The position numbers and the translations under genes were made by a program. Below the pieces are notes generated by a model. That model was not told the origin of the DNA. It did not search any database and saw nothing but the letters and a program-made list of their open reading frames with translations. From Candidatus Poribacteria bacterium (lineage in GTDB: Bacteria; Poribacteria; WGA-4E; WGA-3G): a DNA stretch of 64,000 nucleotides. The first letter of the stretch is position 1; every line of letters starts with the position of its first letter. The stretch covers positions 874,398 to 938,397 of the forward strand of contig CBDAUH010000003.1 in assembly GCA_965200395.1 (NCBI GenBank). Reading direction: 5' to 3'. This document shows positions 10,190 through 53,911 of the stretch, in pieces.

Positions 10190-11528
10190 TCCCGCACTTA
10201 CCCCCATTTTTTTTTTGAATGCGTGTGTAGTTGTGTTCATAGGTCTCCAATGTTGTCATGTCAGTTCTTCTGCGGTGAGAAAGTTTATATCTCTCAAACA
10301 AGTCCTCTCGGTGAACAAGAGCAACGCCTCCTGCGTCCACACCTCGCGGATCATACGGTTGATGACACTGATCACGGAGTAAACTTTCCGCGTAGGGTGT
10401 AAAGTTTTTGCCCATCTGTCCGCAGCTTTTTCATAACACAGGAACGCCAAACCATAAGCCACGACTGCCAACAAAAACAGAACTTCCATCCGGGGCTGTT
10501 CGTTCTTTCTCAAAACGAGTGCTTTGAAACCGAAGTTCGTTTTCAAGTCTCTGAACCCGTGTTCAATCTGTGTCCGCCGCTTGTAGCAAGTTCGCAGGGG
10601 GTTCCCCTGAAGCCGATTGGAGATAAGATATAACGGGTCTTTCTTGGTGTGCTGTCCCCCAACATAGAGTGCCACAGGCACCTGCTCCGTGTAGTGATAA
10701 AGCACTTGTGGGTAAAAACCATTTGCCACTTCTTCAAGGCACTGCTTGTTGCCTGCTATACGCACACCAACATTGCGTGGCACACGCATCAAGTAGCAGA
10801 TGCCTTGCCCCTCAAAAAACTTGAGGATCGCTCTCGCTCGGGCGAACCCTCTGTCAAAAACCAACACAGGCTCCCGACTATCCCCTAACACTTTAACAAC
10901 GCGACTATGGACATCACAACAGAACTGCTGAACTAAATCGTTATGTCCTTGATAGGTGCCATCTTTGAGCATCTCATTTTTATACAGAACCCAATAGAGC
11001 GGGATCGCACGATTGCGAAACGGAAGGGCTGCAACAATCGCCTTCCATCCGCCCGGTAAATCTGTCTCGTCTATCAGCACAAGCAGATGCTGCATCCCCA
11101 CAGAACGACACACACTGACAACTATATGTGACAACCAAGCACCCTTCACCGCTGCAACCGGAAAATAGGTGTCAATAAACCGCAACACACGCTTTTGCTT
11201 AGACTTGTCGTGTTTCACACGGATAGGTAGATGTGAGGCAATCGATTGAATACGAAAACTTGGGGCTACACACACAGCCTGTAGCATCAAATAAAAGTTG
11301 CGGAGCGTCGGTTTTTTGATACAAACCCCGTTGAAAACTTTACGAAAACCTGTTATAATCTTTCTGGGATGTACCCAGCTAAGGGTATATTTCATAAGAA
11401 TACCTCCCTGCCGGTTTTTCACCGACATTATTTTATATGGAGGTATTCTACCATAACCCATCAGACTTTCCAACTTATTTCTATACACACACACGCCTAC
11501 ACATACCGCATACAAAAATGGGGGTAAG
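10190..11528 (-). mobile_element. IS4-family insertion sequence
   Basis: DDE transposase ORF flanked by roughly 12-bp terminal inverted repeats: cacttaccccca at 10194-10205 and tgggggtaagtg at 11514-11525. The element sits inside an array of GC-rich palindromic units (CCCGCAGGCGGGG). Confidence 0.6.
10256..11395 (-). CDS. IS4-family DDE transposase
   Basis: [15 protein letters not shown] is a Y-x2-R-x3-E-x6-K signature. ATG at 11395 is preceded by a GGGAGG ribosome-binding site. Confidence 0.75.
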
Positions 11529-13553: not shown

Positions 13554-14984
13554 TCAAGTTTTACATCGCCCGCCTGTATCGCAAGCCGCAGGGCGGTTGC
13601 GGAGGTCTTGCCTCGCTTCCAGAATCCGACCTAAAAGACCCTTCGCGAGTCCTCGAACATAGTATGCTCTGGCATAATCAAGTTTTAGTCTTATGGCAAT
13701 GTCATAATCGGCAATCGCAGCACTGTATTGTTCCAATTTACCCTTTGCATTTCCCCGATTGTAGTATGCTAAGGCATCAGGTTTTAGTCTTATGGCGATG
13801 TCATAATCAGCAATCGCAGCAAAATGTTGTCCCAAGTTATCCTTCGCAGCTCCCCGATTGTTGTATGCTTCGGCAAAATCGGGCTTGAGTCTTATGGCGA
13901 TGTCATAATCAGCAATCGCAGCACTGTATTGTCCCAAGTTATTCTTGACACTTCCTCGATTGTAGTATGCTAAGGCATCAGGTTTTAGTCTTATGGCAAT
14001 GTCATAATCAGCAATCGCAGCAAAATGTTGTCCCAAGTTATTCTTCGCAGCTCCCCGATTAAGGTATGCATCGGCAGCATTAGGTTTTAGTTTTATGGCA
14101 GTGTCAAAATCGGCAATTGCAGCAAAATGTTGTCCCAAGTTATCCTTCGCAGCTCCCCAATTGAGGTATGCATTGGCATCATCGGGTTTGAGGCGGATAG
14201 CCTTGGTATAGTCTGTGATGGCACCTGCGTAATCGCCTAACTTGTACTTCACGTTTCCCCACAGAAAGTAGGTCTCCGCAGAGATAGAAGATTGTCCTTG
14301 TGATAAAGGTTTTGACAGCCCCGGTCCCTTCAGCAGCTTTTTAAGATATTTGGATGGAATGGCAAAGTTAAGGTTCTGGGCATCCAAGGATCTGTGGGTA
14401 GAAAAGGACACACCAATCACTTCGCCTTTACGATTTAGCACAGGACCGCCACTACTCCCAGGAGAAATCGGCGCAGTCATCTGCAAACGTTCTTTTGTGT
14501 ACTTATCTCTACGGCTACTGATAAGACCATCCGAGAAGGTGCCTTCTAATCCTTTCGGATTACCTGCAACGTAGACTGTCTCACCGATTCGTACGGTATC
14601 GCTTTCACCCAGCGAAAGCGGTTTGATGCCGTACGCGGTCACCTTTAGAAGTGCAAGGTCGTTTACCTTGTCGGTTGCTGTAACGCCTTCAATCTTGTAT
14701 TGGGTATATTTACCGACTAACTTTGCGGTACCTTTAGCTGCGCCTTCAATTACGTGGTAGTTCGTAGCAATGAGATTAGATTTGACAAAGAATCCGCTGC
14801 CGATTCCGAGGGTTTTTCCGTTTTTGTCCTGCATCTCCAAGTATACTGTTGCTGCTAATGCTTTTTCTGCGATGTCTTCGGCGGGGAGGGTGGTTTGTGC
14901 TGGTGCTGTGATTGTTATGCAAAAGAGGAGAAAAGTGGCTGCGCATTGGGAGAATATCCATAATAATTTGGCTTTGTGTTTCAT
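13554..14984 (-). CDS. Secreted trypsin-like (S1/HtrA-like) serine protease with C-terminal TPR array, paralog 1
   Basis: Signal peptide MKHKAKLLWIFSQCAATFLLFCITITAPAQ; catalytic-triad context TNYHV (His), DLALLKV (Asp) and GSSGGPV (Ser); followed by about 7 TPR repeats. The C-terminal tail differs from the paralogs because of a 1-nt indel near 13590. Confidence 0.8.
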   Translation of the reverse strand: MKHKAKLLWIFSQCAATFLLFCITITAPAQTTLPAEDIAEKALAATVYLEMQDKNGKTLGIGSGFFVKSNLIATNYHVIEGAAKGTAKLVGKYTQYKIEGVTATDKVNDLALLKVTAYGIKPLSLGESDTVRIGETVYVAGNPKGLEGTFSDGLISSRRDKYTKERLQMTAPISPGSSGGPVLNRKGEVIGVSFSTHRSLDAQNLNFAIPSKYLKKLLKGPGLSKPLSQGQSSISAETYFLWGNVKYKLGDYAGAITDYTKAIRLKPDDANAYLNWGAAKDNLGQHFAAIADFDTAIKLKPNAADAYLNRGAAKNNLGQHFAAIADYDIAIRLKPDALAYYNRGSVKNNLGQYSAAIADYDIAIRLKPDFAEAYNNRGAAKDNLGQHFAAIADYDIAIRLKPDALAYYNRGNAKGKLEQYSAAIADYDIAIRLKLDYARAYYVRGLAKGLLGRILEARQDLRNRPAACDTGGRCKT

Positions 14985-15040
14985 GGTATTTTCCTTTGAT
15001 GGTGTAGCTTGTCTTGAAGATTGAACGTGTTATTGACAAA

Positions 15041-15069
15041 ATGATAACACAATTTGCTGAAGGTGTCAA
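15041..15069 (-). promoter_or_regulatory. Near-consensus sigma70 promoter of protease paralog 1
   Basis: Minus strand reads TTGACA-17 nt-TATCAT, about 55 bp upstream of the ATG at 14984. The element is conserved upstream of all three paralogs. Confidence 0.55.
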
Positions 15070-15484
15070 GAGTGTTTTTGTTTTCAACGGAGGCATTCAA
15101 AAGTCGCGGATTTTTTGTCAGAATCTCGGATTTTCACCAAATCAACGGTATGAATGTCATTTAGGCGTTCCTCGGATTATCTTTGTCAGGATCGCGGAGG
15201 ACACTAAATCTGAGGCAATTGAATGGCTCTGGAAACATCACAGAAAAGGTTGCCTGTTCTACGGCAAATTTGTTATAATTTTAACATCATGTTTCGGGTG
15301 GAACTGCTACGAATCGGAAACCCTTTTTCGTTTCTCCGCCCCTTCTGCTGTAGCAGAGGATAGAATAAAATGGAGGCGGGAATCCGAGGGAGATGATACT
15401 GGAAGGATCGCTGCGTGTGTAGCAAACAAAACATGGCACACCCATCACCTTGCCACACCAAAATCTAATTTGGAGGTAATTAAA

Positions 15485-16159
15485 TTGGGAAAACACCATA
15501 ACATTCAGAGCGGAACAGACTGGATAAATAACATTGTTACTTTCAACGGACAAGGATGTTCGGGGAAAACGACCCAAGTGAAACTGCTTGCCAACTCAAA
15601 TAAAGAGGAGTATAAACGCATTCATAGTTATAAACTTCGGAGGAAGTTCAAGAAAAAAATTTATGAGAAAACGGAGGGTATGAATACAGATATCAAGTAC
15701 TTAAATGAGAGTGGTACTTGTAAGAAACTATACAGTGTGGAAGTTTCAGGACATCCTTCCTTCGCTTGGTTGATAGCTAATTTTTACAAGACAGCGAAAC
15801 CACTTATGTTGGAGGGCACCACCGTTGTTTTAGATCACTATCTCGGCGACTATTATGCCGATATGTTAGCTTGTGTTGATATTGCGGATCTTCTATCTCT
15901 CGTCAGAGAAGATTTGGTGATACCAGATTTTGATCAAGGTACGCATTTCTATCTTGATATTGATTACGAGATCTATCAGGAGAGATGGCGCGAGCGGGAA
16001 GGAACCGAGCCGCGAGTGAATAGAGAAACTTTTAAAAAACGACGTGAACGCTATCAAGAACTTTGTGAATTGACACCGCTGAAATGTATTGACGCTAAGG
16101 TGAGTAAGGAGGAGGTTGCTAAAAAGGTACAAGAGGTTTTAGCTTGCGAAAATCAATAA
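15485..16159 (+). CDS. P-loop kinase-like protein (thymidylate/dNMP-kinase-like Walker A)
   Basis: FNGQGCSGKTTQ Walker A near the N-terminus. Proposed TTG start at 15485 with a GGAGG ribosome-binding site 8 nt upstream. The upstream part of ORF 15014-16159 overlaps the promoter and repeat and is rejected. Confidence 0.45.
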   Translation: MGKHHNIQSGTDWINNIVTFNGQGCSGKTTQVKLLANSNKEEYKRIHSYKLRRKFKKKIYEKTEGMNTDIKYLNESGTCKKLYSVEVSGHPSFAWLIANFYKTAKPLMLEGTTVVLDHYLGDYYADMLACVDIADLLSLVREDLVIPDFDQGTHFYLDIDYEIYQERWREREGTEPRVNRETFKKRRERYQELCELTPLKCIDAKVSKEEVAKKVQEVLACENQ

Positions 16160-16263
16160 AAAAGCAGTGTGTTATGTAGTACTATGTGGCCAGACGATCA
16201 TGTTCCGAGTCAATGTGGTTTCAGCTTCGATCGCTTATGTACTTACAGATAAAGGAGAAAATA

Positions 16264-16902
16264 ATGTCAAGTGAAATGTTATTACGAAATGCGATTTCCA
16301 CGATTGCCAACGATGGTATTGAAGAATGTCGGAAAGAGATTGAGAAAGCGGAATACCGCTGTGGACTTATTACAGAAAAAGACGTTTTCCTGAATAACTT
16401 CATTTGGATGGGGCCTCCAAAGGAATGGGAAGCGTTTACACCATCGGCTACCGAAATCGGTAAGCTTTATGAAGAGATAGCACCTCAAGAAGAACCGGCG
16501 CGCACACTAAACACTGTTGTTGAAGGTATAAAGAAGAGGTTTCCGGATGCGGATACCGCTGTGGGCGCGGTAAGTGCCCTTTACAAAACGTCTGAATGGT
16601 TTGGCAAACACTTAAGCCTTTGTACACACTTTGATGTGCATCTTATGTCGTCGCTATGGGTCAGGAATCTCCGATCTTCGAGTGGATCAGAATCGGCAGA
16701 TAAACTTTATATTGAAGATGGGAACCATCGAGCGTTAGTTTATGCAATACGGTTGATCTATGGTGCTGAAAAGGAATTTAGACCTGTTCGAGTGATTTGG
16801 TGTAAGTCATGGGAGCACATTCTTTGTTGGGCAGGTGATCCTGAAGCTGGAGATTCACCGCCTAGTGCTCTTGAGGAGTTTTTTACCGCATCGGTGAAAT
16901 AG
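16264..16902 (+). CDS. ParB/Srx-like nuclease-domain protein
   Basis: YIEDGNHRALVYAI is a DGxHR ParB/sulfiredoxin-fold signature. ATG at 16264 is preceded by an AAGGAG ribosome-binding site. Confidence 0.5.
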   Translation: MSSEMLLRNAISTIANDGIEECRKEIEKAEYRCGLITEKDVFLNNFIWMGPPKEWEAFTPSATEIGKLYEEIAPQEEPARTLNTVVEGIKKRFPDADTAVGAVSALYKTSEWFGKHLSLCTHFDVHLMSSLWVRNLRSSSGSESADKLYIEDGNHRALVYAIRLIYGAEKEFRPVRVIWCKSWEHILCWAGDPEAGDSPPSALEEFFTASVK

Positions 16903-16998
16903 AAAGATATCATTGAGGATGTCTACAGGTTTCGCAAAGAAGGGCGTTTATACAAGGATAACGGAATCCGTAGCGTTTTCGGTTGTATAGGTGTGAGT

Positions 16999-17139
16999 TC
17001 ACAATCTGATATACCTATTTTCTATGCCAAGTCTGCGCGCTTCCGCCCAGAGCAACTTCTGAAAGAACGTAACTGCTGTCTCCAGATTGAGTTGATCAAG
17101 GTCGTCGTTCTTCAGGGTGAAAATATTTTCATGATGCAT
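16999..17139 (-). pseudogene. 5' remnant of a second STAND NTPase gene copy
   Basis: Minus-strand translation MHHENIFTLKNDDLDQLNLETAVTFFQKLLWAEARRLG matches the first ~38 aa of the 19081-22860 product; a stop follows 9 codons later. The upstream GGGGGAG ribosome-binding site and conserved intergenic sequence are also present. Confidence 0.6.
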
Positions 17140-17373
17140 CACTTCACTCCCCCAAATTACTGAATTTTCTATTATGGTTAAATATGAAAATAAATAGACA
17201 CCGCATCCATAGAAGTGATCCTAGAATTTCGCCTTATCTCAATAATAGTCGGGTTTCGCAAGCTCTACCTGACCTACAAAATGTCCGATTAATTCTAAAA
17301 TCTACCATAGTTGTTGTGTGTGCCCAAATTGCTTAGTTTTCTTCAGTAATTGTGGCGTGCTTCTAAACTGTTT

Positions 17374-18756
17374 CTACTCACTCATTAAGTTAAGAATACG
17401 CAGTCCCTCCTCGATATCTGCTTTAAGTTTTACATCGCCCGCTTGTGTTGCAAGCCGCAGGGCAGTGCGGAGGTCTTGCCTCGCTTCCAGTGTCCGACCT
17501 AAAAGACCCTTTGCAAGTCCTCGACCGTAGTATGCATCGGCATAATCAGGTTTTAGTCTTATAGCGGTGTCATAATCGGCAATCGCAGCAAAATGTTGTC
17601 CCAAGTTATTCTTCGCAGCTCCCCGATTAAGGTATGCATCGGCAGCATTAGGTTTTAGTCTTATAGCGGTGTCATAATCGGCAATTGCAGCAAAATGTTG
17701 TCCTAAACGAGCCTTTGCATTTCCCCGATTGATGTACGCATCGGCATAATCAGGTTTTAATCTTATGGCGGTGTCAAAATCAGCAATTGCAGCAAAATGT
17801 TGTCCCAATTTACCCTTCGCATTTCCCCGATTATTGTATGCTGTGGCAACATCAGGTTCGAGTCCTATGGCAATGTTATAATCAGTAATCGCAGCAAAAT
17901 GTTGTCCCAATTTACCCTTCGCATTTCCCCGGTTGTTGTATGCTGAGGCAACATCAGGTTCGAGTTGGATAGCCTTAGTATAGTCAGCGATGGCACCCGC
18001 ATAATCGCCTAAATTGTACTTCACATTTCCCCACTGGAAGTAGGTCTCGGCAGAGATAGAACGTTGTCCTTGTGATAAAGGTTTTGACAGCTCCGGTTGC
18101 TTCAGCAGATTTTTAAGATATTTGGATGGAATGGCAAAGTTGAGGTTCTGCGCATCCAAATCCTTATAGACAGCAAAGGACACACCGATTACTTCGCCTT
18201 TTTTGTTTAGCACAGGACCGCCACTGCTCCCAGGAGAAATCGGCGCAGTCATCTGCAAACGTTCTTTTGTATATCTATCTCGACGGCTACTGATAATGCC
18301 ATTCGAGAAGGTTCCCTCTAATCCTTTCGGATTGCCCGCAACATAGACTGTCTCGCCGATTCGCACAGTATCGCTGTCACCAAGGGAAAGCGGTCTGATA
18401 CCGTACGCAGTTACCTTTAGGAGTGCCAGGTCGTTTATCTTGTCGGTTGCTGTAACGCCTTCGATGTTGTATTGGGTATATTTGCCGACTAACTTTGCGG
18501 TGCCTTTGGCTGCGCCTTCAATTACGTGGTAGTTCGTAGCAATGAGGTTAGACTTGACAAAGAATCCGCTGCCGATGCCGAGGGTTTTTCCGTTTTTGTC
18601 CTGCATCTCCAGGTATACTGTTGCTGCTAATGCTTTTTCTGCGATGTCTTCGGCGGGGAGGGTGGTTTGTGCTGGTGCTGTGATTGTTATGGAAAATAGG
18701 AGGAAAGCGATTGCGCATTGGGCGAATATCCACAATAATTTATTTCTGTGTTTCAT
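17374..18756 (-). CDS. Secreted trypsin-like serine protease with TPR array, paralog 2
   Basis: More than 90% identical to paralog 1 across the protease domain, with about 6 TPR units and an intact C-terminus ...LRILNLMSE. Confidence 0.8.
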   Translation of the reverse strand: MKHRNKLLWIFAQCAIAFLLFSITITAPAQTTLPAEDIAEKALAATVYLEMQDKNGKTLGIGSGFFVKSNLIATNYHVIEGAAKGTAKLVGKYTQYNIEGVTATDKINDLALLKVTAYGIRPLSLGDSDTVRIGETVYVAGNPKGLEGTFSNGIISSRRDRYTKERLQMTAPISPGSSGGPVLNKKGEVIGVSFAVYKDLDAQNLNFAIPSKYLKNLLKQPELSKPLSQGQRSISAETYFQWGNVKYNLGDYAGAIADYTKAIQLEPDVASAYNNRGNAKGKLGQHFAAITDYNIAIGLEPDVATAYNNRGNAKGKLGQHFAAIADFDTAIRLKPDYADAYINRGNAKARLGQHFAAIADYDTAIRLKPNAADAYLNRGAAKNNLGQHFAAIADYDTAIRLKPDYADAYYGRGLAKGLLGRTLEARQDLRTALRLATQAGDVKLKADIEEGLRILNLMSE

Positions 18757-19080: not shown

Positions 19081-22000
19081 TTAAAATTCTCGTTCTTCGT
19101 ACATCTTCGCGTTTGTAATCTCTACTTCCAGTATGGCGACAAACTCATCAACCCACTGTTTTACATTCTCATTGTCTTCGCTCGCTTTTATACGGCAAAG
19201 TTTCTGCTTTTTCGCTTGATAGTTTTCACTTTTCAACCCCATCGTTACTCCTTCGAAAAAATTGGAGATGAGCGCACTGCGAACATCTTCTCTATTACCA
19301 TAGCGGACGAGGATTTTTCGCGCCAAGGAATCGCCCCATTCCGCTGCTGCAAGCGTTTTCGGAACACACCCACGCGCAAGAGACCTTGCGCGCTTTTCTA
19401 CGTCTTCGTCAATCCATTCCCAGATGTTTTTCGGTGGGATCAAGGTCAATGCGCCTGTTCCTTTTTTCGTCTCCGAGAGGTCTGTCTCTCTCATCCATTT
19501 TTCAAAAGCGCGTGTTCTCCAAAAGTCTTCTGAATCTTCTAAGGCGTTGCTAACGCGTTTCCAAACCGCTACTGGGGCCTGTTTCGCCATTTCGGTGAGA
19601 ATAGAATTCGTCTGTGAATAGACATCAAACAGTGCTCCCTTTTTACCGAAGTGAACCAGCATACGTTCTACAAGTTCTAAAGCTTTTGTTGGATGGTGGT
19701 GTATGAACATTTTTCCGATTTTTGTCCAATGATAAGTCATCATGCTATCGGTTTGATGTTCTTCCAACACGGATGAATGCGTGAGCACTTGGAACGTAGG
19801 ATCAAGCGGTAAAACCTGTTCGTTTTTATTTAAGATATAGTAACGGTGATACAGCTTTAAGGCGATGGCTACGGCAGATGTCTCCGTGGATTCCAGTAAA
19901 AATTCAATCCATTTCTCAAAGACTCCAACCGATAGATTTTCTAAGCCTTTAGCGGAGCTCAATATTCCGAAGTGCTTATGATTGATGATTCCGTTTTGCG
20001 CGAGTTTCAGGAGGCTCACCCCCGCTGCATCTGTCATGCCTGAATACGAGATGAGTTCCGGAATGTGCACATTCAGTATTATATCTTCGCTGAGCGTCTC
20101 TAGTTGCTTTTCCCATCTCTCAAGGTCGGTGTTAAGGAGTGCAGAAAAATAACCTCCCAGAAAATACACGCTTGCATTTTCTGGGACGTTTCGCTGAGCC
20201 TCCAGCAGCATTGGGAGCAGCGAAAAACCGTTATCTTCTTGACCGAGTGCTTCTCCAAACCGATACCCGTTGTGTGCTTCAGTTGTGGCGAGCCATCGCA
20301 GTTCAGATTGCAAAAGCGATGGTGTCTCCACGGCTTGTTGTGCAAGGACCTGTATCTGTGGATGCCCGTGTACAAGATGATTTTTGTTTTCGTCAAAGTC
20401 GTCTGTGAGCAAATTCATTCCGACATACCGTTGCAGCCTCGATGGAAAGTTATCTCCTAGTAAATCGTCTATGAGCTGTTCCAACTGCTTGCGGATGTCA
20501 ACGGATAAACCTTTGCCATTGACGTAGGAATCATCATGAGACAGAATGTGACTCAGGGCGGTGATCACCTGCTTTTCGGTTGCATACCCTTTTTCAACGG
20601 TTGTTCTCATTGTACGGACAACGGTAGCTGCGAGATCGGGGATTCTCGCCATCGCGCTTGCATGACTCAGCAGAATGTTTATTCCTGTCTCACGCTCATC
20701 TTCAGGTAATATGGGCAATTGCGTAGACAAGAGTTGCCAGACGCGTCGGTAGGCATCCCAAAGTTCACCGTATGTTTTAGGGACCCAAAACGCGGGTTCT
20801 TTGCGTAGCCCTTGATATTCAGCACTTCCTGTCCGTGAAAAAAACTCTGATGTGAGTGCGGAGTCGCAAGCCCTTAAAGCAAGGAGTCTGCGTGCCTTGG
20901 ACTTAGATTTAAGTGCCTCTTCCAAGACAGGGAACCGCTCTGCGGGGGAGGCTTCGGAATGTGCAATGGGGCCAGATCCCGGTGAGAATATCTCGACAAA
21001 CATACCACTGGCGTTGTTTGCACAGCCCTCATTCTCTGCTTCGCCGAGGGCAAGCAGGAGACGCGCCGCATCTGTGAACAGATCTCGCCAAAATGCAATT
21101 TTTTCGAGGGCATATACGATGTTTCTTCTGCTATCTGTGAGTTGCAAAAGCGTTTTTCTGTCCCATTTCCCCACGGTTGCCTTAAGGCATTTTAAGGCAG
21201 AGGCGGGATCAGCGTTTGTCAATGCTAAAAAAAAACGGCTGCCCAGTCTTGTTTTCAGAGATTCGTTATTCTGGAAGGGGCCCTCTGGCCCGAGGAGGTC
21301 TCTGGCAATACCGGAGGCTGCTTCCGATTCAGCTGCGTACTCGAACATCTCGTAGAACCACTCAACCAATCTTGGGGGTAAGTCTTCAATGAACTGTTCA
21401 AGATGAAACAGTCTATGATGCCGTTCCCACCACTGTGTCCATAACTTGATATGGAGTGCTTTGGGTGTAATGTAGAGTGTGAATTCACCTTGAAGGATTT
21501 TACGTTCTTTGAGTTCGTGGAGGATATTTTCAAATTTGTGGGGTGTAATTTCTGGTGCTGCCGCCTGTACTTTTTTTGCGATGGCTTCTGCCTCAACAGC
21601 AACAGAGCGTTCATAGCCGAACCGCTTAAAGAGTGCCAGATGTTGGAGGATTAATCGCCGGTGTTCTGTTTTTTGGTGGTCGTCATCGCCTGCTGCGATA
21701 TAACGTTCCCATATATCCACTGTATCAGGTGGGAGCAGTACATCTTCTGGATGATTTACCAAATTCCATCCGATGACGTGTGCGACCCTGGGGGAGCCGC
21801 CGCAGAGTTCAGCCCACCGATTGACTGAAGGGGCAGAGATCGTCGTATACGTCTCAATGATGCTGCGAATTTGTCCATCTTCAAGTGGTGGCGCGACATA
21901 AGGGATAATGCCGCTGGTCCGCTCCTCATAGTCGTTATAGATCGTAACCAATTTAACGCGAGGTCCGCGGTGTCTTAATTTCTGCCAAATCTCATATTTG

Positions 22001-22860
22001 TTGTCTGGGTCACATTCATCAATAACGACAATCGCACAAAATGGGTTATCCTCTCGGAGCAGCGCGTTTATCAAAACACTGTCTCGAAATTGTGATGGTG
22101 TGCAGTAGATTACTAAAGGTGATAAATCTTCTGCCCGCGTTGCTTCAAGCACTAATCGCGTTTTACCAATACCGGGTTCACCTAAGACGCGTATGTGAAC
22201 GGTATCTTCATCTCGCCGCAATTCGTTTTGTAGCTCTTCAATAAAGTCTTCTTGTGCCTGTCCGAGAAACAGCGGGTCCTGCATACCCGCATTCTGCTCC
22301 CAGCTCTGATGGGTTTGAAATTTTGCCTCGCTAAGTTCCTTGGTGTCCAATGCTAACGATGGGAACCGTTCAACAAAACCGATGAGCGTATTCTGACTCC
22401 ACACCTCAACTTTTGGGGGTTGTCCGTGTTCAGATGTCAGAATGCTCTTAATGTGAGAAAGGATTGCTCTGTGTTCACTATCAACAAGGTCAATTCCGGT
22501 GCATACCAAAACGTAAGTTCCATCAGCCTCAAGACAGGCTTGAATACCTTCCTTAATGTTTTCTTGTATATTGAGGAGTTCTTTTTCGATATTTGGTTTT
22601 GTTTTTCCTGATTTGATCTGATAGAAGGTTTTGCCTGGCTTAATGAGGCCTCCGCTGATTGTTTCTTGAGCTTCGTTCACAGTTGCATCGATCCCTCCAT
22701 CTGGGACATGCACACGGCGCGATATATTTATTTTTCCGATTTCTACGCCGAGTCTACGCGCTTCTGCCCACAGCAGCTTCTGAAAGAACGTAACTGCCCT
22801 CTCCGGATTGAGTTGAGCAAGGTCGCTGTTCTTCAGGGTGAAAATATTTTCATGATGCAT
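19081..22860 (-). CDS. STAND-type P-loop NTPase with N-terminal Mrr-like nuclease domain and about 800-aa C-terminal helical-repeat sensor region (Avs-like candidate)
   Basis: N-terminal segment VHVPDGGIDATVNEAQ...YQIKSGK fits the Mrr-cat D-(E/Q)xK pattern. Walker A VLGEPGIGKT and Walker B IVVIDECD are present. ATG at 22860 with a GGGGGAG ribosome-binding site. Confidence 0.7.
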   Translation of the reverse strand: MHHENIFTLKNSDLAQLNPERAVTFFQKLLWAEARRLGVEIGKINISRRVHVPDGGIDATVNEAQETISGGLIKPGKTFYQIKSGKTKPNIEKELLNIQENIKEGIQACLEADGTYVLVCTGIDLVDSEHRAILSHIKSILTSEHGQPPKVEVWSQNTLIGFVERFPSLALDTKELSEAKFQTHQSWEQNAGMQDPLFLGQAQEDFIEELQNELRRDEDTVHIRVLGEPGIGKTRLVLEATRAEDLSPLVIYCTPSQFRDSVLINALLREDNPFCAIVVIDECDPDNKYEIWQKLRHRGPRVKLVTIYNDYEERTSGIIPYVAPPLEDGQIRSIIETYTTISAPSVNRWAELCGGSPRVAHVIGWNLVNHPEDVLLPPDTVDIWERYIAAGDDDHQKTEHRRLILQHLALFKRFGYERSVAVEAEAIAKKVQAAAPEITPHKFENILHELKERKILQGEFTLYITPKALHIKLWTQWWERHHRLFHLEQFIEDLPPRLVEWFYEMFEYAAESEAASGIARDLLGPEGPFQNNESLKTRLGSRFFLALTNADPASALKCLKATVGKWDRKTLLQLTDSRRNIVYALEKIAFWRDLFTDAARLLLALGEAENEGCANNASGMFVEIFSPGSGPIAHSEASPAERFPVLEEALKSKSKARRLLALRACDSALTSEFFSRTGSAEYQGLRKEPAFWVPKTYGELWDAYRRVWQLLSTQLPILPEDERETGINILLSHASAMARIPDLAATVVRTMRTTVEKGYATEKQVITALSHILSHDDSYVNGKGLSVDIRKQLEQLIDDLLGDNFPSRLQRYVGMNLLTDDFDENKNHLVHGHPQIQVLAQQAVETPSLLQSELRWLATTEAHNGYRFGEALGQEDNGFSLLPMLLEAQRNVPENASVYFLGGYFSALLNTDLERWEKQLETLSEDIILNVHIPELISYSGMTDAAGVSLLKLAQNGIINHKHFGILSSAKGLENLSVGVFEKWIEFLLESTETSAVAIALKLYHRYYILNKNEQVLPLDPTFQVLTHSSVLEEHQTDSMMTYHWTKIGKMFIHHHPTKALELVERMLVHFGKKGALFDVYSQTNSILTEMAKQAPVAVWKRVSNALEDSEDFWRTRAFEKWMRETDLSETKKGTGALTLIPPKNIWEWIDEDVEKRARSLARGCVPKTLAAAEWGDSLARKILVRYGNREDVRSALISNFFEGVTMGLKSENYQAKKQKLCRIKASEDNENVKQWVDEFVAILEVEITNAKMYEEREF

Positions 22861-22963
22861 TACTTCACTCCCCCAAATTACTGAATTCTCTATCAGTTGT
22901 TGTGTGTGTCCAAATTGTTCAGTTTTCTTCAGTGATTGCGGTGTGCTTCTAAACTGTTTCTAC

Positions 22964-24642
22964 TCACCTATTAAGAATACGTAGCAGCTTCTCGATATCT
23001 GCTTTGAGATTTGCATTGCCTGCTTGTGTCGCAAGCCGCAGTGCAGTGCGGAAGTCTTGTCTCGCTTCCAGTGTCCGACCTAAGCTACCCTTCGCAAGTC
23101 CTCGACCGTAGTATGCATCGGCATAATCAGGTTTTAGTCTTATGGTGGTGTCATAATCGGCAATCGCAGCAAAATGTTGGCCTAAGTTACCCTTTGCAAC
23201 TCCCCGGTTGTAGTATGCTAAAACATAGTCGGGTTTTAATCTTATAGCGGTGTCATAATCGGCAATCGCTTCAAAATGTCGTCCTAAGTTTTTCTTCGCA
23301 AGTCCCCGGTTGTTGTATGCTTTGGCATCATTTGGTTTTAGTCTTATAGCGGTATCATAATCGGCAATCGCAGCAATGTATTGTCCTAAATCGGTCTTCA
23401 CATTTCCCTGATTATAGTATGATGATACCTCATCGGGTTTTAGTCTTATAGCGATGTTATAATCGGCAATCGCCTTAAAATGTTGTCCTAAATTAGCGTT
23501 CACATTTCCTCGGTTGTTGTATGCTTTGGCATCATTAGGTTGTAATCTTATGGCGGTGTCATAATCGGCAATCGCAGCAGTGTATTGCCCTAAATCAGCC
23601 TTCGCCAGTCCTCGGTTGTTGTATGCTTTGGCCTCATTTGGTTTTAGCCTTATGGCGATGTTATAATCAGCAATTGCCTCAAAATGTTGCCTCAACTTAT
23701 GCTTCACAAATCCCCGGTTGTTGTATGCTTCGACATAATCAGGTTTTAGTCTTATAGCAGTGTCGTAATCGGCAATCGCCTCAAAATGTTGCCCCAGGTT
23801 ATACTTCGCAAGTCCGCGACTGTAGTATGCCGTGGCATTCTTTGGTTCGAGTTTTATGGCCTTGGTATAGTCTGCGATGGCACCTATATAATCGCCTAAC
23901 TCGGACTTCACATTCCCCCACAGGAGGTAGGTCTCCGCAGAGATAGAAGATTGTCCTTGTGATAAAGGTTTTGACAGCCCCGGCCCCTCCAGCAGCTTCT
24001 TAAGGTATCTGGATGGAATAGCGAAGTTGAGGTTCTGTGCATCCAAAGATCTATGGTAGAAAAGGACACACCGATTACTTTACCTTTTTTGTTTAGCACA
24101 GGACCGCCACTGCTCCCCGGAGAGATCGGCGCAGTCATCTGCAAACGTTCTTTTGTGTACTTATCTCGCCGGCTACTGATAATGCCATCCGAGAAGGTGC
24201 CTTCTAACCCTTTCGGATTACCTGCAACGTAGACTGTCTCACCGATCCGCACAGTATCGCTTTCGCCCAGCGAAAGTGGTTTGATGCCGTACGCTGTCAC
24301 CTTTAGGAGTGCAAGGTCGTTTATCTTGTCGGTTGCTGTAACGCCTTCAATCTTGTATTGGGTGTATTTACCGACTAACTTTGCAGTGCCTTTAGCTGCG
24401 CCTTCAATTACGTGGTGGTTGGTAGCAATAAGATTAGACTTTACAAAGAACCCGCTGCCGATTCCGAGGGTTTTTCCGTTTTTGTCCTGCATCTTCAAGT
24501 ATACTGTTGCTGCTAACGCTTTTTCTGCGATGTCTTCGGCAGGGAGGGTGGTTTGTGCTGGTGCTGTGATTGTTATGCAAAAGAGGAAAAAAGCGGCTGC
24601 ACATTGGGGGAATATCCACGATAATTTATGTCTGTATTTCAT
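22964..24642 (-). pseudogene. Trypsin-like protease with TPR array, paralog 3, frameshifted
   Basis: Split into ORFs 23908-24642 and 22964-24046. A 1-nt deletion relative to the paralogs lies near 24050; about 9 TPR units. Confidence 0.55.
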
Positions 24643-26426: not shown

Positions 26427-27113
26427 TTATACTGCATTAGCAGCCTTTATGAAATGTGAGAACCCAGTGAGTTTAGCGATAGCAGCATCGGAATAACTTT
26501 GAAGTATCTCCGTCACTTTCGCTTGCATAGCCTCAAGCGTCTCATAGAACTCGGTAAACAACTTCGCTTTCAAGTCTTGCCAGAAACGCTCAATTGGGTT
26601 CAACTCCGGACTATACGGCGGTAAGAAAAGTAAAACAACATTAGCAGGAACCACTAACGATTTAGCATGATGAAAACGACCCTTATCAAGCACTAATAAG
26701 TTGAGGCTCTCCGCGTAGGCAACCGATACAGCATCAATGAAACACTGAAAACAATCTGAAGTCAAGTGGGAAAGTTCTAAGAAAAATCGCTCACCTGTCA
26801 AAGGTTCAACCGCACCATAGAGATAAACCGATGTATATTGGTAATCTATCTTCGCGACAGGTTTGACACCGCGTTGCGTGATACGCCGTTCTGTAGTAGG
26901 CAAAAGACCATATCGCGTCTCATCTTGACTGAAAACACGAACGCTTTGAAAATCCGCACCTTTTTCAGCAACCGCATCAGCGACATGTTTGCTAAACTCG
27001 GAGCGGAATGTTTCAGTCGCTACTGCGTTTTTTTTTACATGGCTCTTACGAGGCACTTTGAGTTTGGCTCCCCATTTATCATGAACCATTGCGTAAACAG
27101 TTTTATAGTTCAT
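26427..27113 (-). CDS. IS630 transposase, DDE domain (orfB)
   Basis: ...FLPPYSPELNPIERFWQDLK is the DDE_3 signature. Confidence 0.75.
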   Translation of the reverse strand: MNYKTVYAMVHDKWGAKLKVPRKSHVKKNAVATETFRSEFSKHVADAVAEKGADFQSVRVFSQDETRYGLLPTTERRITQRGVKPVAKIDYQYTSVYLYGAVEPLTGERFFLELSHLTSDCFQCFIDAVSVAYAESLNLLVLDKGRFHHAKSLVVPANVVLLFLPPYSPELNPIERFWQDLKAKLFTEFYETLEAMQAKVTEILQSYSDAAIAKLTGFSHFIKAANAV

Positions 27114-44146: not shown

Positions 44147-45562
44147 ACATATACTATAGTTTGGACATTTTGGGACATTCAGGCTGCGTTGTCCGCAGGC
44201 AATGCTGTCTCTTTGTGAAAATCGGTGTGTATTTTCTGTGAGTTTGTTTTTTCAGAGTAAATCGCAGAAAATACCGCTCTGTAGAGCTGCCAGCGGAGAT
44301 AAACTACACGCAACCCTTGTGTGAGACGCTTCGGATGATACCAATGGATGCCCAACTGATCACAAACTACCTGAGCACTTATCTCCTCCGCCGTCCCATC
44401 CCGTGGGGTGAATAGCAACTTCGTCAGACTTGCTGCAACGAAACTCAATTGCACAAACCGATTGATGCTTTTGCGGGATTTCAGGCGATAGTCATCAAAA
44501 CCGAAGTGTTGCTTCGCATCCCGAAAAGCCGTCTCTATGTGCCATCTCTTGCGATAATATATAGCGATCTGTGGTATCCCAATCGTCAAATCTGTTGTCC
44601 ATACACAGAAATACCGATAAGGTTTCGAGGTTTTCGGGCGACTTCGGATAACAACGAGGCGAATATCAGCATCGCACATCTTCGTTCTCACGACTTTGGA
44701 GGCGATTGAATACTTTTGGCCTTCTATATCCATAAGCGTATACCGCATCCTGCGAATATCCAAGCGGTCTCCATATTTTCGCGGACGGCCACGCTGGCGA
44801 TGTTTCGGCTGTTCCGGTAAACGATAGAAGACGGCATTAGACTTCGCACGACACAAGATATGATGTCCATAACTTTGAACCAGCGTAAACACTTTTCGCC
44901 TTGAGAACCCACGATCAAAAATAATAAGACCCGGAGCGATCTGGGAACAGATGCGTTTCAACACCGCATCGCTTTTATCACGGCACGTCTGCGGCACCAT
45001 CAGTCTCGCCCATACGGGGAATAGCTGCCAACCTATAGATGTTTGGCAAAGTAAACCTAAGGCACCAAACTCGTGTCCATAATGGAACTTGGATCGGTTC
45101 ACGCGACCCTTTTGATAACTGAAGTTGCGGAAAAAATGCAACCCCCACTGGCGTTCACCTGTTTTTATGGCTTTGGTCTCATCATACACATAAACCCAGT
45201 TAGGAAATGCTTGCTGAACCTTTTTTGTCAGGTGTCCTGCGACTTTATCCGCATCCCATTTACCACGCGATAGAAACTTTGGAAAAGACCAGTATCGCGT
45301 CTGTGAAAAACCTGATTGATAAAGTTCCGTTAGCGTGCCACTATTTCCATCTGCGATAAATCCGAAAATAAACGCTTGGAAAAGAGCATAGTTTTGTGTG
45401 TTGAACAGATACTGAAAATCTGATAGAATGTCGTCTAAGCAGAAAAGGAGGTTCATTTTTTATTCTCCTTTCAAAAAATATATTTGTTTATGAAAGGATA
45501 CCTGCTTTTCTGTTTTTTCGCACTAAAAATTTCTAAAATTGTCCAAACTATAGTTACATATA
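44147..45562 (-). mobile_element. IS4-superfamily insertion sequence, copy 1, inserted at the 3' end of ybeY
   Basis: Inverted repeats acatatactatagtttggacatttt at 44147-44171 and aaaattgtccaaactatagttacatat at 45536-45562; internal DDE transposase ORF. Confidence 0.7.
44179..45456 (-). CDS. IS4-superfamily DDE transposase
   Basis: RWHIETAFRDAKQHFGFDDYRLKS; paralog of 52530-53762. Confidence 0.75.
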   Translation of the reverse strand: MNLLFCLDDILSDFQYLFNTQNYALFQAFIFGFIADGNSGTLTELYQSGFSQTRYWSFPKFLSRGKWDADKVAGHLTKKVQQAFPNWVYVYDETKAIKTGERQWGLHFFRNFSYQKGRVNRSKFHYGHEFGALGLLCQTSIGWQLFPVWARLMVPQTCRDKSDAVLKRICSQIAPGLIIFDRGFSRRKVFTLVQSYGHHILCRAKSNAVFYRLPEQPKHRQRGRPRKYGDRLDIRRMRYTLMDIEGQKYSIASKVVRTKMCDADIRLVVIRSRPKTSKPYRYFCVWTTDLTIGIPQIAIYYRKRWHIETAFRDAKQHFGFDDYRLKSRKSINRFVQLSFVAASLTKLLFTPRDGTAEEISAQVVCDQLGIHWYHPKRLTQGLRVVYLRWQLYRAVFSAIYSEKTNSQKIHTDFHKETALPADNAA

Positions 45563-52334: not shown

Positions 52335-53911
52335 TATTATTACTATAGTTTGGACATTTTTGGTCTTGTTATAGATTATGAATAGTTGGCAGCATTTCCC
52401 CGTTAGCACTTCTGAACAGGTGTTAGAACCGCTGCTAACGCCCCTTTTCTGTCTAAATTCTGTTAGAAATCACTGTTTTTTAGCCATCATTTTTCCAATA
52501 ATCGTGAAAATAGTTGCTGTTGAACTAGTTCATGTAGTATCTTCGGGGATTTTTAGTTTTTTCTGTGCGTTTTTCCTCGGATCGTAACCCGTATAAAAAT
52601 AGTTTTGTTGTAAACGTCGCTGCAAGTAAGCGGTCATCAAGCCGCGTGTGAGATGTTTCGGTTTATACCAGTGTATATTGAGCGTGGATAGCACGTCTTC
52701 TAAATCAAGAGAAACCTTGTCTGTGTCTGTGTCTGCGGGTGTCTTAGGCAATGGCGACGGACTGAAAGCGAGTTGTGTCAGCGTTGCTGCGGTGAAACTG
52801 AGTTGAGCGAACCGATCCAAACTTTTCCTGTCTCGGAGTTGATAGGTGTCAAATCCGAAGTTTTCTTTAGCGTCCCGAAAGGCAGTTTCAATCTGCCATC
52901 GGTTTCTATAGTGTCGGATAACTGTTTCTACGGGCAGTCGTAAATCTGAAGTAAATACACAAAAATACCGATAGGGTTTAGACTTTTTCAAGCGTTTGCG
53001 TATCACAACGATGCGGACATCTACAGGACACATCTTTGTTCGCACGACTTTATCAGCGACAGAAAGTGTCTGATCCTCAACAACGATATCTGTATACTTC
53101 AGGTGTGGAATAGACACACGGCTACCATACCGACGGGGTCTGCCTCTCTTGAGACGCTTAGGGCGTTTCGGTATATCAAAAAACGCTGCGTTTGACTTCG
53201 CACGACAAAGTAAATGATGTCCTTGTGAGAGTATCTCCGTGAACACTTTGCGTCTATTGAAACCTCTATCAAAAATGATAAGACCCGGTGGCACAAGATT
53301 ACATAAATGCTTCAGCACAGCGAGGCTATTCGCGTCCTCGCTTTTCGGTTCCATCATCCGTGTGGCTAATGGAAATAGGCGCGTGCCTTCGCGCGTTTCT
53401 GCCAGCCAGCCAATCGCACCGAACTCGTGTCCGTGATGAAACTTGGACTGGTTCTTGTTACGTGCCTGATACGCAGGGTTCCTGCGGAAATGCAAACCCG
53501 CTTGTTTTGAACCGCTACTTATGGCATGCGTCTCATCATAGACATAGACGCCCGTGGGGTAAGCGGATAGCACTTGATGGCTTAGCGTAGTGGCGACTTG
53601 ATCCACACACCAGATGCCACGCGAGAGAAACTTTGGCAGAGACCAATACCGACCTGCTTGGGCTGTCGCAAGATAGATTTGTGTCATTGTGCCTCGGTAG
53701 GGCGTATTTATCAGACCTTTTACGAAAGTCTGAAAGTGGTGAAAGTTATTATACTTGAACAAAGGTCAAAAATCTGATAACATGTTGTCCAAGTAGGAAA
53801 GTGGGGTCATTTGAAATATCCTTTCAAATTTGTGTTTCCTAAAAGGATACCCGCTTTCCTGCTTTATGTCCATAAAAAAAACAAAAATTGTCCAAACTAT
53901 AGTTATTATTA
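52335..53911 (-). mobile_element. IS4-superfamily insertion sequence, copy 2 (related to 44147-45562)
   Basis: Inverted repeats ttattactatagtttggacattttt at 52335-52361 and tgtccaaactatagttattatta at 53889-53911. Confidence 0.7.
52530..53762 (-). CDS. IS4-superfamily DDE transposase
   Basis: RWQIETAFRDAKENFGFDTYQLRD; about 50% identical to 44179-45456. Confidence 0.75.
   Translation of the reverse strand: MFKYNNFHHFQTFVKGLINTPYRGTMTQIYLATAQAGRYWSLPKFLSRGIWCVDQVATTLSHQVLSAYPTGVYVYDETHAISSGSKQAGLHFRRNPAYQARNKNQSKFHHGHEFGAIGWLAETREGTRLFPLATRMMEPKSEDANSLAVLKHLCNLVPPGLIIFDRGFNRRKVFTEILSQGHHLLCRAKSNAAFFDIPKRPKRLKRGRPRRYGSRVSIPHLKYTDIVVEDQTLSVADKVVRTKMCPVDVRIVVIRKRLKKSKPYRYFCVFTSDLRLPVETVIRHYRNRWQIETAFRDAKENFGFDTYQLRDRKSLDRFAQLSFTAATLTQLAFSPSPLPKTPADTDTDKVSLDLEDVLSTLNIHWYKPKHLTRGLMTAYLQRRLQQNYFYTGYDPRKNAQKKLKIPEDTT

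Follow-up and report, generated by a model that had tools for sequence, protein, structure and literature searches.

We lean towards reading the two neighboring genes described here, ORF1 and ORF2, as independent accessory genes from the mobile pool of Poribacteria sponge symbionts, which recombination would have joined into one block of 1.84 kb that overwrote a STAND gene. Both genes lie in the window, i.e., the whole 64,000-nucleotide stretch of Candidatus Poribacteria DNA that was analyzed. Nothing in the data suggests that either needs the other, and an obligate pairing is not supported.

Two tandem genes in a block unique within the window

ORF1 (15485–16159, 224 aa) and ORF2 (16264–16902, 212 aa) are encoded in tandem on the + strand and separated by a spacer of 104 bp (16160–16263), and not divergently as a preliminary description of this DNA had it; the only divergent arrangement here is that of ORF1 and the trypsin-TPR gene upstream of it. 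The gene calls of that description held up in their details. ORF1 starts with TTG at 15485, eight nucleotides after a GGAGG ribosome-binding site read from the sequence (15472–15476, + strand), and carries the Walker A string GQGCSGKTTQ (residues 22–31), of which the P-loop GQGCSGKT (residues 22–29; 15548–15571, + strand) is at least 90% conserved in the ORF1-family alignment (A2, 31 members). ORF2 has an ATG start, is preceded within the spacer by an AAGGAG ribosome-binding site (16252–16257), and contains at residues 152–156 (16717–16731, + strand) the sequence DGNHR, a putative ParB/Srx-type phosphate-binding motif. Since the two proteins have 77 (ORF1) and 42 (ORF2) homolog clusters and keep all family-invariant residues, and since the TTG start of ORF1 with its context GGAGGTAATTAAATTG is kept in homologs L011 and L065, both are, judged from sequence, real genes and not chance open reading frames. 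In the public annotation, ORF1 (P0043) is 372 aa long, with an N-terminus over-extended into a duplicated promoter region.

The leader, ORF1, and ORF2 together occupy a block of about 1.84 kb (15176–17018, + strand) that is unique within the window and has a GC content of 0.40–0.43, compared to 0.45–0.50 in its flanks. This block sits in a tandemly amplified trypsin-TPR/STAND array, between two protease paralogs on the − strand, the first at 13554–14984 (Pfam Trypsin_2 and TPR; repeat families D1–D6) and the second at 17374–18756, with an intact STAND NTPase gene nearby (19081–22860, − strand; 1259 aa) that matched PADLOC PD-Lambda-4_A (6.8e-32) and, weakly, AAA_16 and NB-ARC. The preliminary description was correct in placing the genes between protease/STAND paralog loci, in a defense-island position and outside a housekeeping context. 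The homology to the paralogous unit breaks off on the left near 15175 and is taken up again on the right at 17019. There, a STAND gene remnant (17019–17172, − strand), which consists of approximately the first 40 codons and some 35 nt upstream of them, is 91% identical to 22740–22893, where the intact STAND gene has its 5′ end. In place of the STAND gene body that the other repeat unit contains, this unit has the block, which appears to have replaced most of one immune-type STAND paralog.

Promoter, leader, and plasmid-like relatives of ORF1

Within the block, ORF1 is preceded by a promoter and conserved leader element (15230–15368, + strand), which comprises a promoter-like site at 15250–15279 (TTGCCT-N18-TATAAT, 10 of 12 positions matched, with a TG extension) and then a conserved leader of about 90 nt. 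Copies of this leader, 72–78% identical, sit on plasmid-like contigs upstream of an ORF2-family gene (L065–67), an ORF1 homolog (L068), and a 178-aa gene (L066/67). The leader region had no match in Rfam, and an RNAalifold analysis of five copies, too few for covariation to be informative, gave almost no covariation; candidate stems are GGGUGGCA/UGCCACCC and CUGCUACG/CGUAGCAG. No promoter-like and no terminator-like site was found in the 104-bp spacer, and ORF1 and ORF2 in the window are probably co-transcribed from the plasmid-type promoter.

The closest relatives of ORF1 (72–77% amino acid and 81–86% nucleotide identity) lie behind the same promoter and leader on plasmid-like contigs from sponge metagenomes, which carry Rep3 (L011, L065, and L068), ParA-like (L059/60 and L069), and HicAB (L066–68) genes. 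Distinct ORF1-family contexts are few (about nine), and many of the contigs are short. A JGI metagenome scan for ORF1 returned only four short loci, none of them (0/4) with an ORF2-family gene, and the IMG/VR scan found no ORF1 relative. When both proteins were searched by tblastn, PLSDB plasmids gave no match and GenBank phages only a marginal one, to the thymidylate kinase of phage Goslar. Integration of a whole plasmid was considered and rejected, because no other plasmid genes (Rep3, ParA, or HicAB) were found in the window.

A thymidylate kinase-like protein outside the housekeeping family

The assignment of ORF1 as a kinase, made in the preliminary description from the Walker A motif, was borne out by profile and structure searches. 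ORF1 matched Pfam PF02223 (Thymidylate_kin) with 38.7 bits (gathering threshold 27) over profile positions 6–184 of 185, most of its homologs carry a precomputed match to the same family, and the ORF1-family profile matched solved thymidylate kinases (TMKs) in the PDB. When its AF2 model (pLDDT 85.8) was compared with the PDB by Foldseek, the top 50 matches were all TMKs (E 4e-8 to 2e-6, probability 1.0), with a full-length fold match (TM 0.65–0.76) and Aquifex 2pbr, Vibrio 3lv8, and Plasmodium 2wwf among the nearest structures. Common to ORF1 and the TMK family are the P-loop GxxxxGKT, the Asp of DR[Y/H], conserved LID-region arginines (R167), and a C-terminal F-x2-RR-x-RY helix. The ORF1 family differs in having an invariant His for the Arg of DR[Y/H], no conservation of the SxxAYQ-type segment that contacts thymine, and, after the P-loop helix, an additional conserved insertion of about 40 residues (R52, F55, Y60, E86, G89, and W95). 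Its members are carried on plasmids, and all known ones come from sponge-metagenome or Poribacteria-like contigs. The altered motif, DHY (residues 117–119; 15833–15841, + strand), aligns with DRY of the Plasmodium TMK and DRH of the Vibrio TMK, and D117 and H118 show no variation among the 31 family members aligned. As modeled, ORF1 has a thymidylate-kinase fold with an intact P-loop, conserved LID arginines, and a His in place of the acceptor-phosphate Arg.

From its sequence, ORF1 does not appear to be a housekeeping tmk, because it scored only 33.7 bits against the NCBIfam equivalog TIGR00041, far below the cut-off of 83.25, has the invariant DHY, and belongs to a family of only 77 clusters in 5.8 billion proteins. 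It is extremely improbable that ORF1 is the organism's housekeeping thymidylate kinase and ORF2 an unrelated neighbor: such a reading can draw on the Pfam match above threshold and the TMK-like structure, but besides the equivalog score and the replacement of DR[Y/H], the family is patchy and found on plasmid-like contigs, and its member here lies inside a recombined block. Mechanistically, ORF1 would phosphorylate a nucleoside monophosphate, or a close analog of one, with the ATP gamma-phosphate, its acceptor specificity being altered; with the His-for-Arg change, it could also have a non-nucleotide substrate or be non-catalytic.

Weak matches of ORF1 to Pfam AAA_33 and CPT-type kinases were also recorded. 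In addition, ORF1 weakly matched VakA of PADLOC (21.4 bits, 7e-5), a model whose name we guess to stand for viperin-associated kinase. Viperin-associated kinases are related to CMPK2/TMK (bioRxiv 10.1101/2023.09.13.557418), and ORF1 resembles these CMPK2-like nucleoside monophosphate kinases in being a TMK-superfamily kinase among immune genes, but it differs from them in having no viperin/radical-SAM gene beside it, and its VakA score is marginal. The immediate neighbors of ORF1 in the window are ORF2 and the trypsin-TPR protease gene, with no radical-SAM gene beside it, and none was recorded among the called genes of its relatives' loci.

A Poribacteria-restricted family with a probable ParB/Srx core

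ORF2 belongs to a Poribacteria-restricted family, as all 47 of its genome loci (47/47) were from Candidatus Poribacteria or unnamed MAGs, and a genome carries several copies; the closest relatives of ORF2 share about 50% amino acid identity with it. The IMG/VR scan gave a single ORF2 relative, on a contig that has the length of the Poribacteria MAG contig L028 (78,675 bp) and is probably the same one; for P0185, a distant ORF2-like protein, the contigs retrieved were all just about 1.3 kb long. Apart from weaker relatives of about 177 aa, the family was found in Poribacteria genomes only.

The preliminary description had assigned ORF2 to the ParB/sulfiredoxin fold from its DGNHR motif. This superfamily includes PF02195 (e.g., E. 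coli YbdM/IbrB-like), DndB (PF14072), and GmrS/DUF262 (PF03235), and the assignment stood at the level of the motif and its structural surroundings, while significant profile or PDB fold matches were not obtained. The AF2 model of ORF2 (pLDDT 88.9, pTM 0.86) is helical in its N-terminal half and has a C-terminal core of the order strand-strand-DGNHR-helix-strand, in which the motif falls at the junction of a strand (residues 148–152) and a helix (154–165) that is followed by another strand (175–180). The family motif EDGNHRALVYA is conserved, with D152, G153, and R156 invariant and H155 at least 90% conserved in A1, one of two ORF2-family profiles (A1 and A3). ORF2 thus shares with the ParB/Srx superfamily a DG-x-[HQ]-R at the end of a strand, then a helix and a PV-containing strand; it differs in having no HMM-level membership, a family-specific helical N-terminal half, and no fused nuclease or HTH domain.

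ORF2 had no match in Pfam, NCBIfam, PHROGs, or PADLOC, and the Pfam models proposed for checking it (ParBc, DndB, and DUF262) were unmatched by ORF2, 30 family members, and 10 distant relatives. HMMER searches of the PDB with A1 and A3 gave only matches that we rejected as chance (uS10 and PrsA) and no ParB, and Foldseek found nothing significant in the PDB for the ORF2 model (best E 0.88), its list including Noc/Spo0J/ParB over about 66 columns at a probability of 0.06–0.11. In BFVD, the best match to the model was a ParB-like nuclease domain protein (E 0.02, probability 0.94), many of the top 20 matches had ParB/Srx names, and ParB/Srx/DndB/GmrS names were strongly enriched among the top matches. 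Profile-profile alignment of A3 by hhalign gave P 0.097 for DndB, 0.031 for DUF262, and 0.0063 for the YbdM family, with probabilities of at most 6% against shallow templates; the ParB template profile was shallow because the YbdM homolog search returned close relatives only. In these alignments, DGNHR of ORF2 was in register with DGQHR of DndB, DGQQR of DUF262, and DGFHR of YbdM, i.e., three unrelated ParB-clan templates align at DGxxR, with the register extending through the subsequent helix and strand for two of the three. A ParB/Srx-like core in ORF2 is plausible, although not significant by fold or profile-profile comparison, and we regard such a core as probable. It is unlikely that ORF2 lacks the ParB/Srx fold, with DGNHR convergent and the protein either novel in fold or serving restriction islands as a regulator or DNA-binding protein without NTP chemistry. 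While the blank profile searches and the insignificant PDB and hhalign results would agree with that alternative, the register of the three templates and the enrichment of ParB-type names in BFVD argue against it, as does the fusion or adjacency of family members to DNA methyltransferases (P0181, P0152, and cluster c3), which is common for ParB-like domains.

The genomic setting of the ORF2 family, as of the ParB/Srx superfamily, is among restriction/modification genes. Across 80 immediate neighbors of ORF2 relatives, the commonest Pfam families were all of restriction-modification or nuclease types (DUF4268, HSDR_N, N6_N4_Mtase, N6_Mtase, HNH_2/5, SNase, BsobI, and Mrr_cat) and none was a kinase; the window has no homologs of these neighbor genes. 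Binding of NTPs is a general property of ParB/Srx domains, and the invariant DGNHR loop of ORF2 would bind NTP phosphates. By analogy with the roles of the corresponding domains in DndB, DpdB, and GmrS/DUF262, ORF2 may take part in restriction-type conflicts as an accessory that binds or nicks DNA in an NTP-dependent manner, a role that fits its relatives adjoining solitary Mrr/HNH/HSDR_N nucleases and methylases. In GmrSD/SspE-type type IV restriction, a ParB-like NTPase domain is combined with a His-Me nuclease, sometimes as two genes (PMC4619093). In a similar arrangement, ORF2 relatives often have a solitary nuclease gene (HNH, Mrr_cat-DUF4268, SBD-HNH, or HSDR_N) as their direct same-strand neighbor, but the partner nuclease varies and is present in a minority of loci and absent in most, and ORF2 in the window has no adjacent nuclease and a kinase as its neighbor.

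Co-occurrence of the two gene families

The preliminary description took the pair for an unnamed two-gene defense or toxin module, a reading that did not survive the gene-neighborhood comparison it had suggested. None of 51 ORF2-family genes (49 loci; tblastn and HMM) had an ORF1-family gene within 10 kb, and an ORF2-family gene was nearby in one of about nine ORF1-family contexts, a plasmid operon, leaving eight of about nine without one. A search for any recurrent Walker-A protein beside ORF2 relatives also found none. The nearest relatives of ORF2 are set in chromosomal restriction islands and those of ORF1 on plasmid-like contigs, and identity to the nearest relatives is unequal (about 50% for ORF2 and about 75% for ORF1 at the amino acid level). 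At the DNA level, the window is homologous to the plasmid ORF1 loci up to 16144 and to ORF2 relatives from about 16318 onwards, and the ORF1-ORF2 junction is therefore unique. Counting the window and the plasmid operon (L065–67), the two families meet twice, which is above random placement in a 5–6 Mb genome, and some functional link is therefore possible.

A dedicated two-gene conflict module, for defense or plasmid anti-defense, in which the ParB/Srx-like protein would bind, or use on DNA, a nucleotide that the kinase produces or uses up, seems to us unlikely. Consistent with it are the compact same-strand arrangement with a promoter upstream of ORF1 only and no terminator-like site between the genes, the position of the block inside a defense-type array where it replaced a STAND gene, the weak VakA match, the general NTP binding of ParB/Srx domains, and the second, independent co-occurrence under the same leader. 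In that plasmid operon, however, the order is leader, ORF2-like gene, three small open reading frames, and ORF1-like gene, so that the two co-occurrences share neither gene order nor spacing, and their ORF2 copies fall in different subfamilies that are only about 30–40% identical. Together with the near absence of co-occurrence elsewhere, the lack of another recurrent P-loop partner, and a junction unique to this genome, this argues against such a module.

A toxin-antitoxin pair, with a zeta-toxin-type P-loop kinase and ORF2 as its antidote, is very improbable. Two small adjacent genes on the same strand in a mobile, defense-rich context could suggest such a pair, as could the AAA_33 and CPT-type matches of ORF1 and weak matches to the VapB antitoxin model in 18 of 30 ORF2-family members; yet the pairing is not conserved, the best VapB score in the family (E 0.0012) is below threshold and ORF2 of the window is unmatched, the best fold and profile matches of ORF1 are nucleotide kinases and not zeta toxins, and ORF1 relatives occur singly on plasmids with HicAB modules of their own. 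We judged the VapB matches to be motif-level noise, which in the one member checked (P0002) covered about 20 residues over the DGNHR-helix segment.

More speculatively, the ORF2 family might be an unrecognised, Poribacteria-specific ParB/Srx-like NTP-binding branch that serves as a portable partner of solitary nucleases and methylases (a "split GmrSD"), and that on plasmids would join a TMK-fold kinase of the DHY type, with which it shares a structured leader, in a nucleotide-based restriction or anti-restriction module, of which the window would hold a chromosomally captured minimal version. We consider this decidedly unlikely.

Implications for Poribacteria mobile elements

Because the pairing is not conserved, the candidate new defense system loses most of its appeal, and the scope of what follows is modest: the two genes, read as independent accessory genes, provide useful annotation leads for Poribacteria mobile elements, none of which opens a long-standing question. 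The plasmid-borne TMK-fold clade, with an invariant His for the catalytic Arg, may have an unusual acceptor. Sponge symbionts are enriched in restriction-modification genes (PMC5649159), and the ORF2 family is a lineage-restricted, multi-copy family with a probable ParB/Srx core that tracks restriction nucleases in such symbionts. Overall, the block would be a concrete case in which a cassette of plasmid-type promoter and genes has overwritten an immune STAND gene, and it would illustrate the turnover of variable islands in an uncultured symbiont.

Gene calls and genomic setting

The TMK-fold (thymidylate-kinase-fold) P-loop kinase gene, ORF1, and the gene for a DGNHR-containing protein, ORF2, were both found on the + strand. 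The preliminary description of the pair as divergently encoded was thus wrong, and a divergent arrangement holds only between ORF1 and the trypsin-TPR gene at 13554-14984. Both ORFs lie where that description placed them: ORF1 (15485-16159, 224 aa) has a TTG start, GGAGG at 15472-15476, and the Walker A motif GQGCSGKTTQ at residues 22-31, and ORF2 (16264-16902, 212 aa), which follows after a 104-bp spacer, has an ATG start, AAGGAG at 16252-16257, and DGNHR at residues 152-156. Searching 5.8 billion protein clusters returned 77 homologue clusters for ORF1 and 42 for ORF2, the family-invariant residues in the alignments are all kept in both window genes, and the TTG start of ORF1 with its GGAGGTAATTAAATTG context is kept in homologous loci. 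Both are genuine genes. The public gene call for ORF1 (P0043, 372 aa) begins far ahead of the conserved start codon, TTG 15485; its extension (15014-15484) takes in both the leader and the duplicated trypsin-TPR promoter region, receives no support from homologues, and is an annotation artefact.

As previously proposed, the pair lies among protease and STAND paralogs. Trypsin-TPR protease genes form a tandem array (13554-14984, 17374-18756, and 22964-24642) interleaved with STAND NTPase genes, of which the one at 19081-22860 is intact (PADLOC PD-Lambda-4_A, 7e-32). In the third protease paralogue, the protease (244 aa) and TPR (360 aa) portions are encoded by separate, overlapping ORFs (22964-24046 and 23908-24642, - strand), owing either to a frameshift or to a true gene split. 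DDE transposase genes (10256-11515 and 26427-27113, - strand) bracket this sulfatase/protease/STAND/ORF1-ORF2 island, and two further transposase paralogues (44179-45456 and 52530-53762) are similar to a transposase that neighbours the ORF1 homologue of locus L061.

Between the first two proteases, a STAND gene remnant (17019-17172, - strand; some 40 codons preceded by about 35 nt of upstream sequence) is 91% identical to the intact paralogue at its 5' end (22740-22893). On the left edge, homology to the paralogous unit stops at about 15175, and the intervening 1.84 kb is of lower GC and contains only the leader, ORF1, and ORF2; the rest of the remnant's STAND gene appears to have been replaced by the ORF1-ORF2 block. 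A conserved element of about 130-140 nt (15230-15368), a promoter-like site plus leader, comprises TTGCCT-N18-TATAAT (15250-15279) followed by GTTTCGGGTGGCACTGCTACGAAT...CCGTAGCAGGGGG. Because the sole promoter-like site is the one ahead of ORF1 and the spacer showed no terminator-like site, the two genes are likely co-transcribed. Copies of the whole element, with 72-78% identity, occur on Poribacteria plasmid-like contigs, where they precede three kinds of gene: an ORF2-family member, an ORF1 homologue, and a third gene (L065 4037-4166; L066/L067 951-1088 and 4038-4167; L068 5729-5871). Two overlapping stems are possible in the leader, GGGUGGCA/UGCCACCC and CUGCUACG/CGUAGCAG, in copies too few and too similar for covariation, and Rfam returned no match. 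No other plasmid genes were found anywhere in the 64-kb window.

ORF1 is a divergent thymidylate kinase relative

ORF1 scored 38.7 bits against Pfam Thymidylate_kin (gathering threshold 27) with the whole domain covered, and its family profile matched solved TMKs (best, Vibrio 3lv8, 7e-9). The best 50 Foldseek matches to its AF2 model (pLDDT 85.8) were all TMK structures (E about 4e-8, TM 0.65-0.76), and therefore the earlier kinase call stands. ORF1 is not the housekeeping enzyme: it reached only 33.7 bits against TIGR00041 (cut-off 83.25), and DHY replaces DR[Y/H], where D117 and H118 are invariant among family members and line up with the DRY/DRH of solved TMKs. The family also conserves its P-loop, the LID-region residue R167, and the C-terminal helix residues F183-R186-R187-R189-Y190. 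A weak match to PADLOC VakA (21 bits) probably reflects TMK/CMPK2 ancestry shared with viperin-associated kinases, and no viperin gene was found near ORF1. Overall, ORF1 is a divergent member of an already known family.

The closest ORF1 homologues (72-77% protein and 81-86% DNA identity) reside on contigs of 15-54 kb that also carry transposases and restriction-modification genes. Rep3 replication initiators occur on three homologue contigs (L011, L065, and L068), ParA-like ATPases lie directly downstream in L059/60 and L069, and HicAB modules are found in L066-68. The Aplysina aerophoba sponge metagenome MKWU01 holds another two homologues. ORF1 is therefore an accessory gene of plasmid type that belongs to sponge symbionts. 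Searches of PLSDB and IMG/VR turned up no relatives, and among GenBank phages there was only a marginal match to one phage TMK.

ORF2 represents a Poribacteria family with a probable ParB/Srx fold

No Pfam, NCBIfam, PHROGs, or PADLOC model matched ORF2, whose family has the invariant core EDGNHRALVYA. In GTDB contigs, searched with one genome per species, 47 loci were recovered, and the named genomes among these all belonged to Candidatus Poribacteria. The family is often multi-copy per genome and is expanded within this lineage. Paralogues co-occur on contig CBDHDL010000007.1 (L035, L054, and L056) and within assemblies VYCT01 (L034, L046, and L057) and CAZGAW01 (L018, L024, and L047), and one contig holds three inside about 100 kb. 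An exhaustive profile search yielded 232 proteins; among these, a weaker-scoring group of ~177-aa proteins shares the core DG-x-H-[KR]-x-LV and belongs to no Pfam family.

The confident AF2 model of ORF2 (pLDDT 88.9, pTM 0.86) has a helical N-terminal half, then strands 131-135 and 148-152, DGNHR, helix 154-165, and strand 175-180, the strand/motif/helix/strand order of the ParB/Srx core. The best Foldseek match in BFVD was a 'ParB-like nuclease domain protein' (E 0.02, probability 0.94), and about half of the best 20 were named ParB, sulfiredoxin, Spo0J, or 'sulfur modification'; against PDB none was significant, with Noc, Spo0J, and ParB-CDP at E 2-7 over about 66 columns. By hhalign, the DG-x-x-R motifs were in register with three ParB-clan templates, namely a DndB and a DUF262 protein of the compared loci and the YbdM family of E. 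coli (P values 0.097, 0.031, and 0.0063, respectively; probabilities at most 6%), and the flanking helix and strand also aligned with DndB and YbdM. This fold and profile support is weak but consistent. We consider the ParB/Srx assignment likely though unproven. The ORF2 family, unannotated and restricted to one lineage, is probably a distant variant of a superfamily already known.

Neighbourhoods of ORF2 relatives vary, and any one gene cluster recurs in at most 9 of the 49 loci. Their 80 immediate neighbours are mostly restriction-type genes, including DUF4268 (with Mrr_cat or HNH fused on in the two members examined), HSDR_N, N6_N4 and N6 methylases, HNH_2/HNH_5 (including ScoMcrA-like SBD-HNH), SNase, BsobI, and AAA_15. 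A same-strand solitary nuclease of the Mrr_cat-DUF4268, HNH-DUF4268, ScoMcrA-like SBD-HNH, or HSDR_N type often adjoins the family gene, and solitary nucleases flank it in L004, L010, L012, L017, L021, L024, L027-L029, L032, L034, L039, L040, L042, and L046; N6_N4 methylases neighbour it in other loci. The nuclease neighbours suggest a split arrangement of a ParB-like protein and a nuclease. Two relatives are fused: P0181 (349 aa) has Methyltransf_24 at the N-terminus and a DG-x-HK core at the C-terminus, and in P0152 (371 aa) the N-terminal half is ORF2-like and leads into a segment resembling, by eye, the N6_N4 DNA methylase neighbours, a fusion that could be an assembly or frameshift artefact. 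Such use resembles the deployment of ParB-like domains of the DndB, DpdB, and GmrS types. GmrSD has been described in a two-gene form (PMC4619093).

Pairing of ORF1 and ORF2

The preliminary description noted a position typical of accessory defence or toxin modules, and the outcome that it named as counting against its reading, an absence of co-occurrence among homologues, is essentially what was observed. By tblastn and HMM search of six-frame ORFs, an ORF1-family gene lay within 10 kb of an ORF2-family gene in 0 of 51 cases. The 80 immediate neighbours of ORF2 relatives included no kinase, and no other Walker-A partner recurred. Conversely, an ORF2-family gene was present in one of ~9 distinct ORF1 contexts, the plasmid-like lineage L065-67, the only place besides the window where the families meet. 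There, one strand (L065 4200-6726; also L066 and L067) carries the leader, an ORF2-like gene (A3 family profile, E 8e-49), three small ORFs (108, 104, and 105 aa, the last HTH_36-like), and an ORF1 homologue of 73% identity. A 134-aa ORF comes next, and Rep3 (L065) or a HicAB module (L066/67) is only a few kb away. This gene order is reversed relative to the window, with an ORF2 copy from another subfamily (about 40% core identity). Window DNA homology to plasmid ORF1 loci ends at 16144 and that to ORF2 relatives begins at about 16318, and therefore the junction is unique; amino-acid identity to the nearest relatives is also unequal (about 75% for ORF1 and about 50% for ORF2).

Two independent meetings nevertheless exceed random genome-wide placement, and they fit both families sharing one plasmid and island gene pool. 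A genuine two-gene module seems unlikely to us, and a "new system" is not supported. We lean towards independent accessory genes that were secondarily juxtaposed; the probability left by these two readings is shared by ORF2 not being ParB-like, a toxin-antitoxin pair, and a housekeeping tmk. In the simplest history, ORF1, in a cassette with its plasmid-type promoter, would have been joined to an ORF2 gene of island type, and the joined block would have replaced a STAND paralogue. A long shot is a role for ORF2 as a portable, ParB-like partner of solitary nucleases that is joined on plasmids by the DHY kinase under a shared leader.

Functionally, ORF1 has a TMK fold in the AF2 model, a P-loop, and conserved LID-region arginines; it may phosphorylate a nucleoside monophosphate or analogue, with the Arg-to-His change altering acceptor handling. 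ORF2, with its conserved DGNHR at a strand-helix junction of the model, might bind NTP through this motif and act on or with DNA in restriction-type conflicts, a role that would serve either the host or, as anti-restriction, the plasmid.
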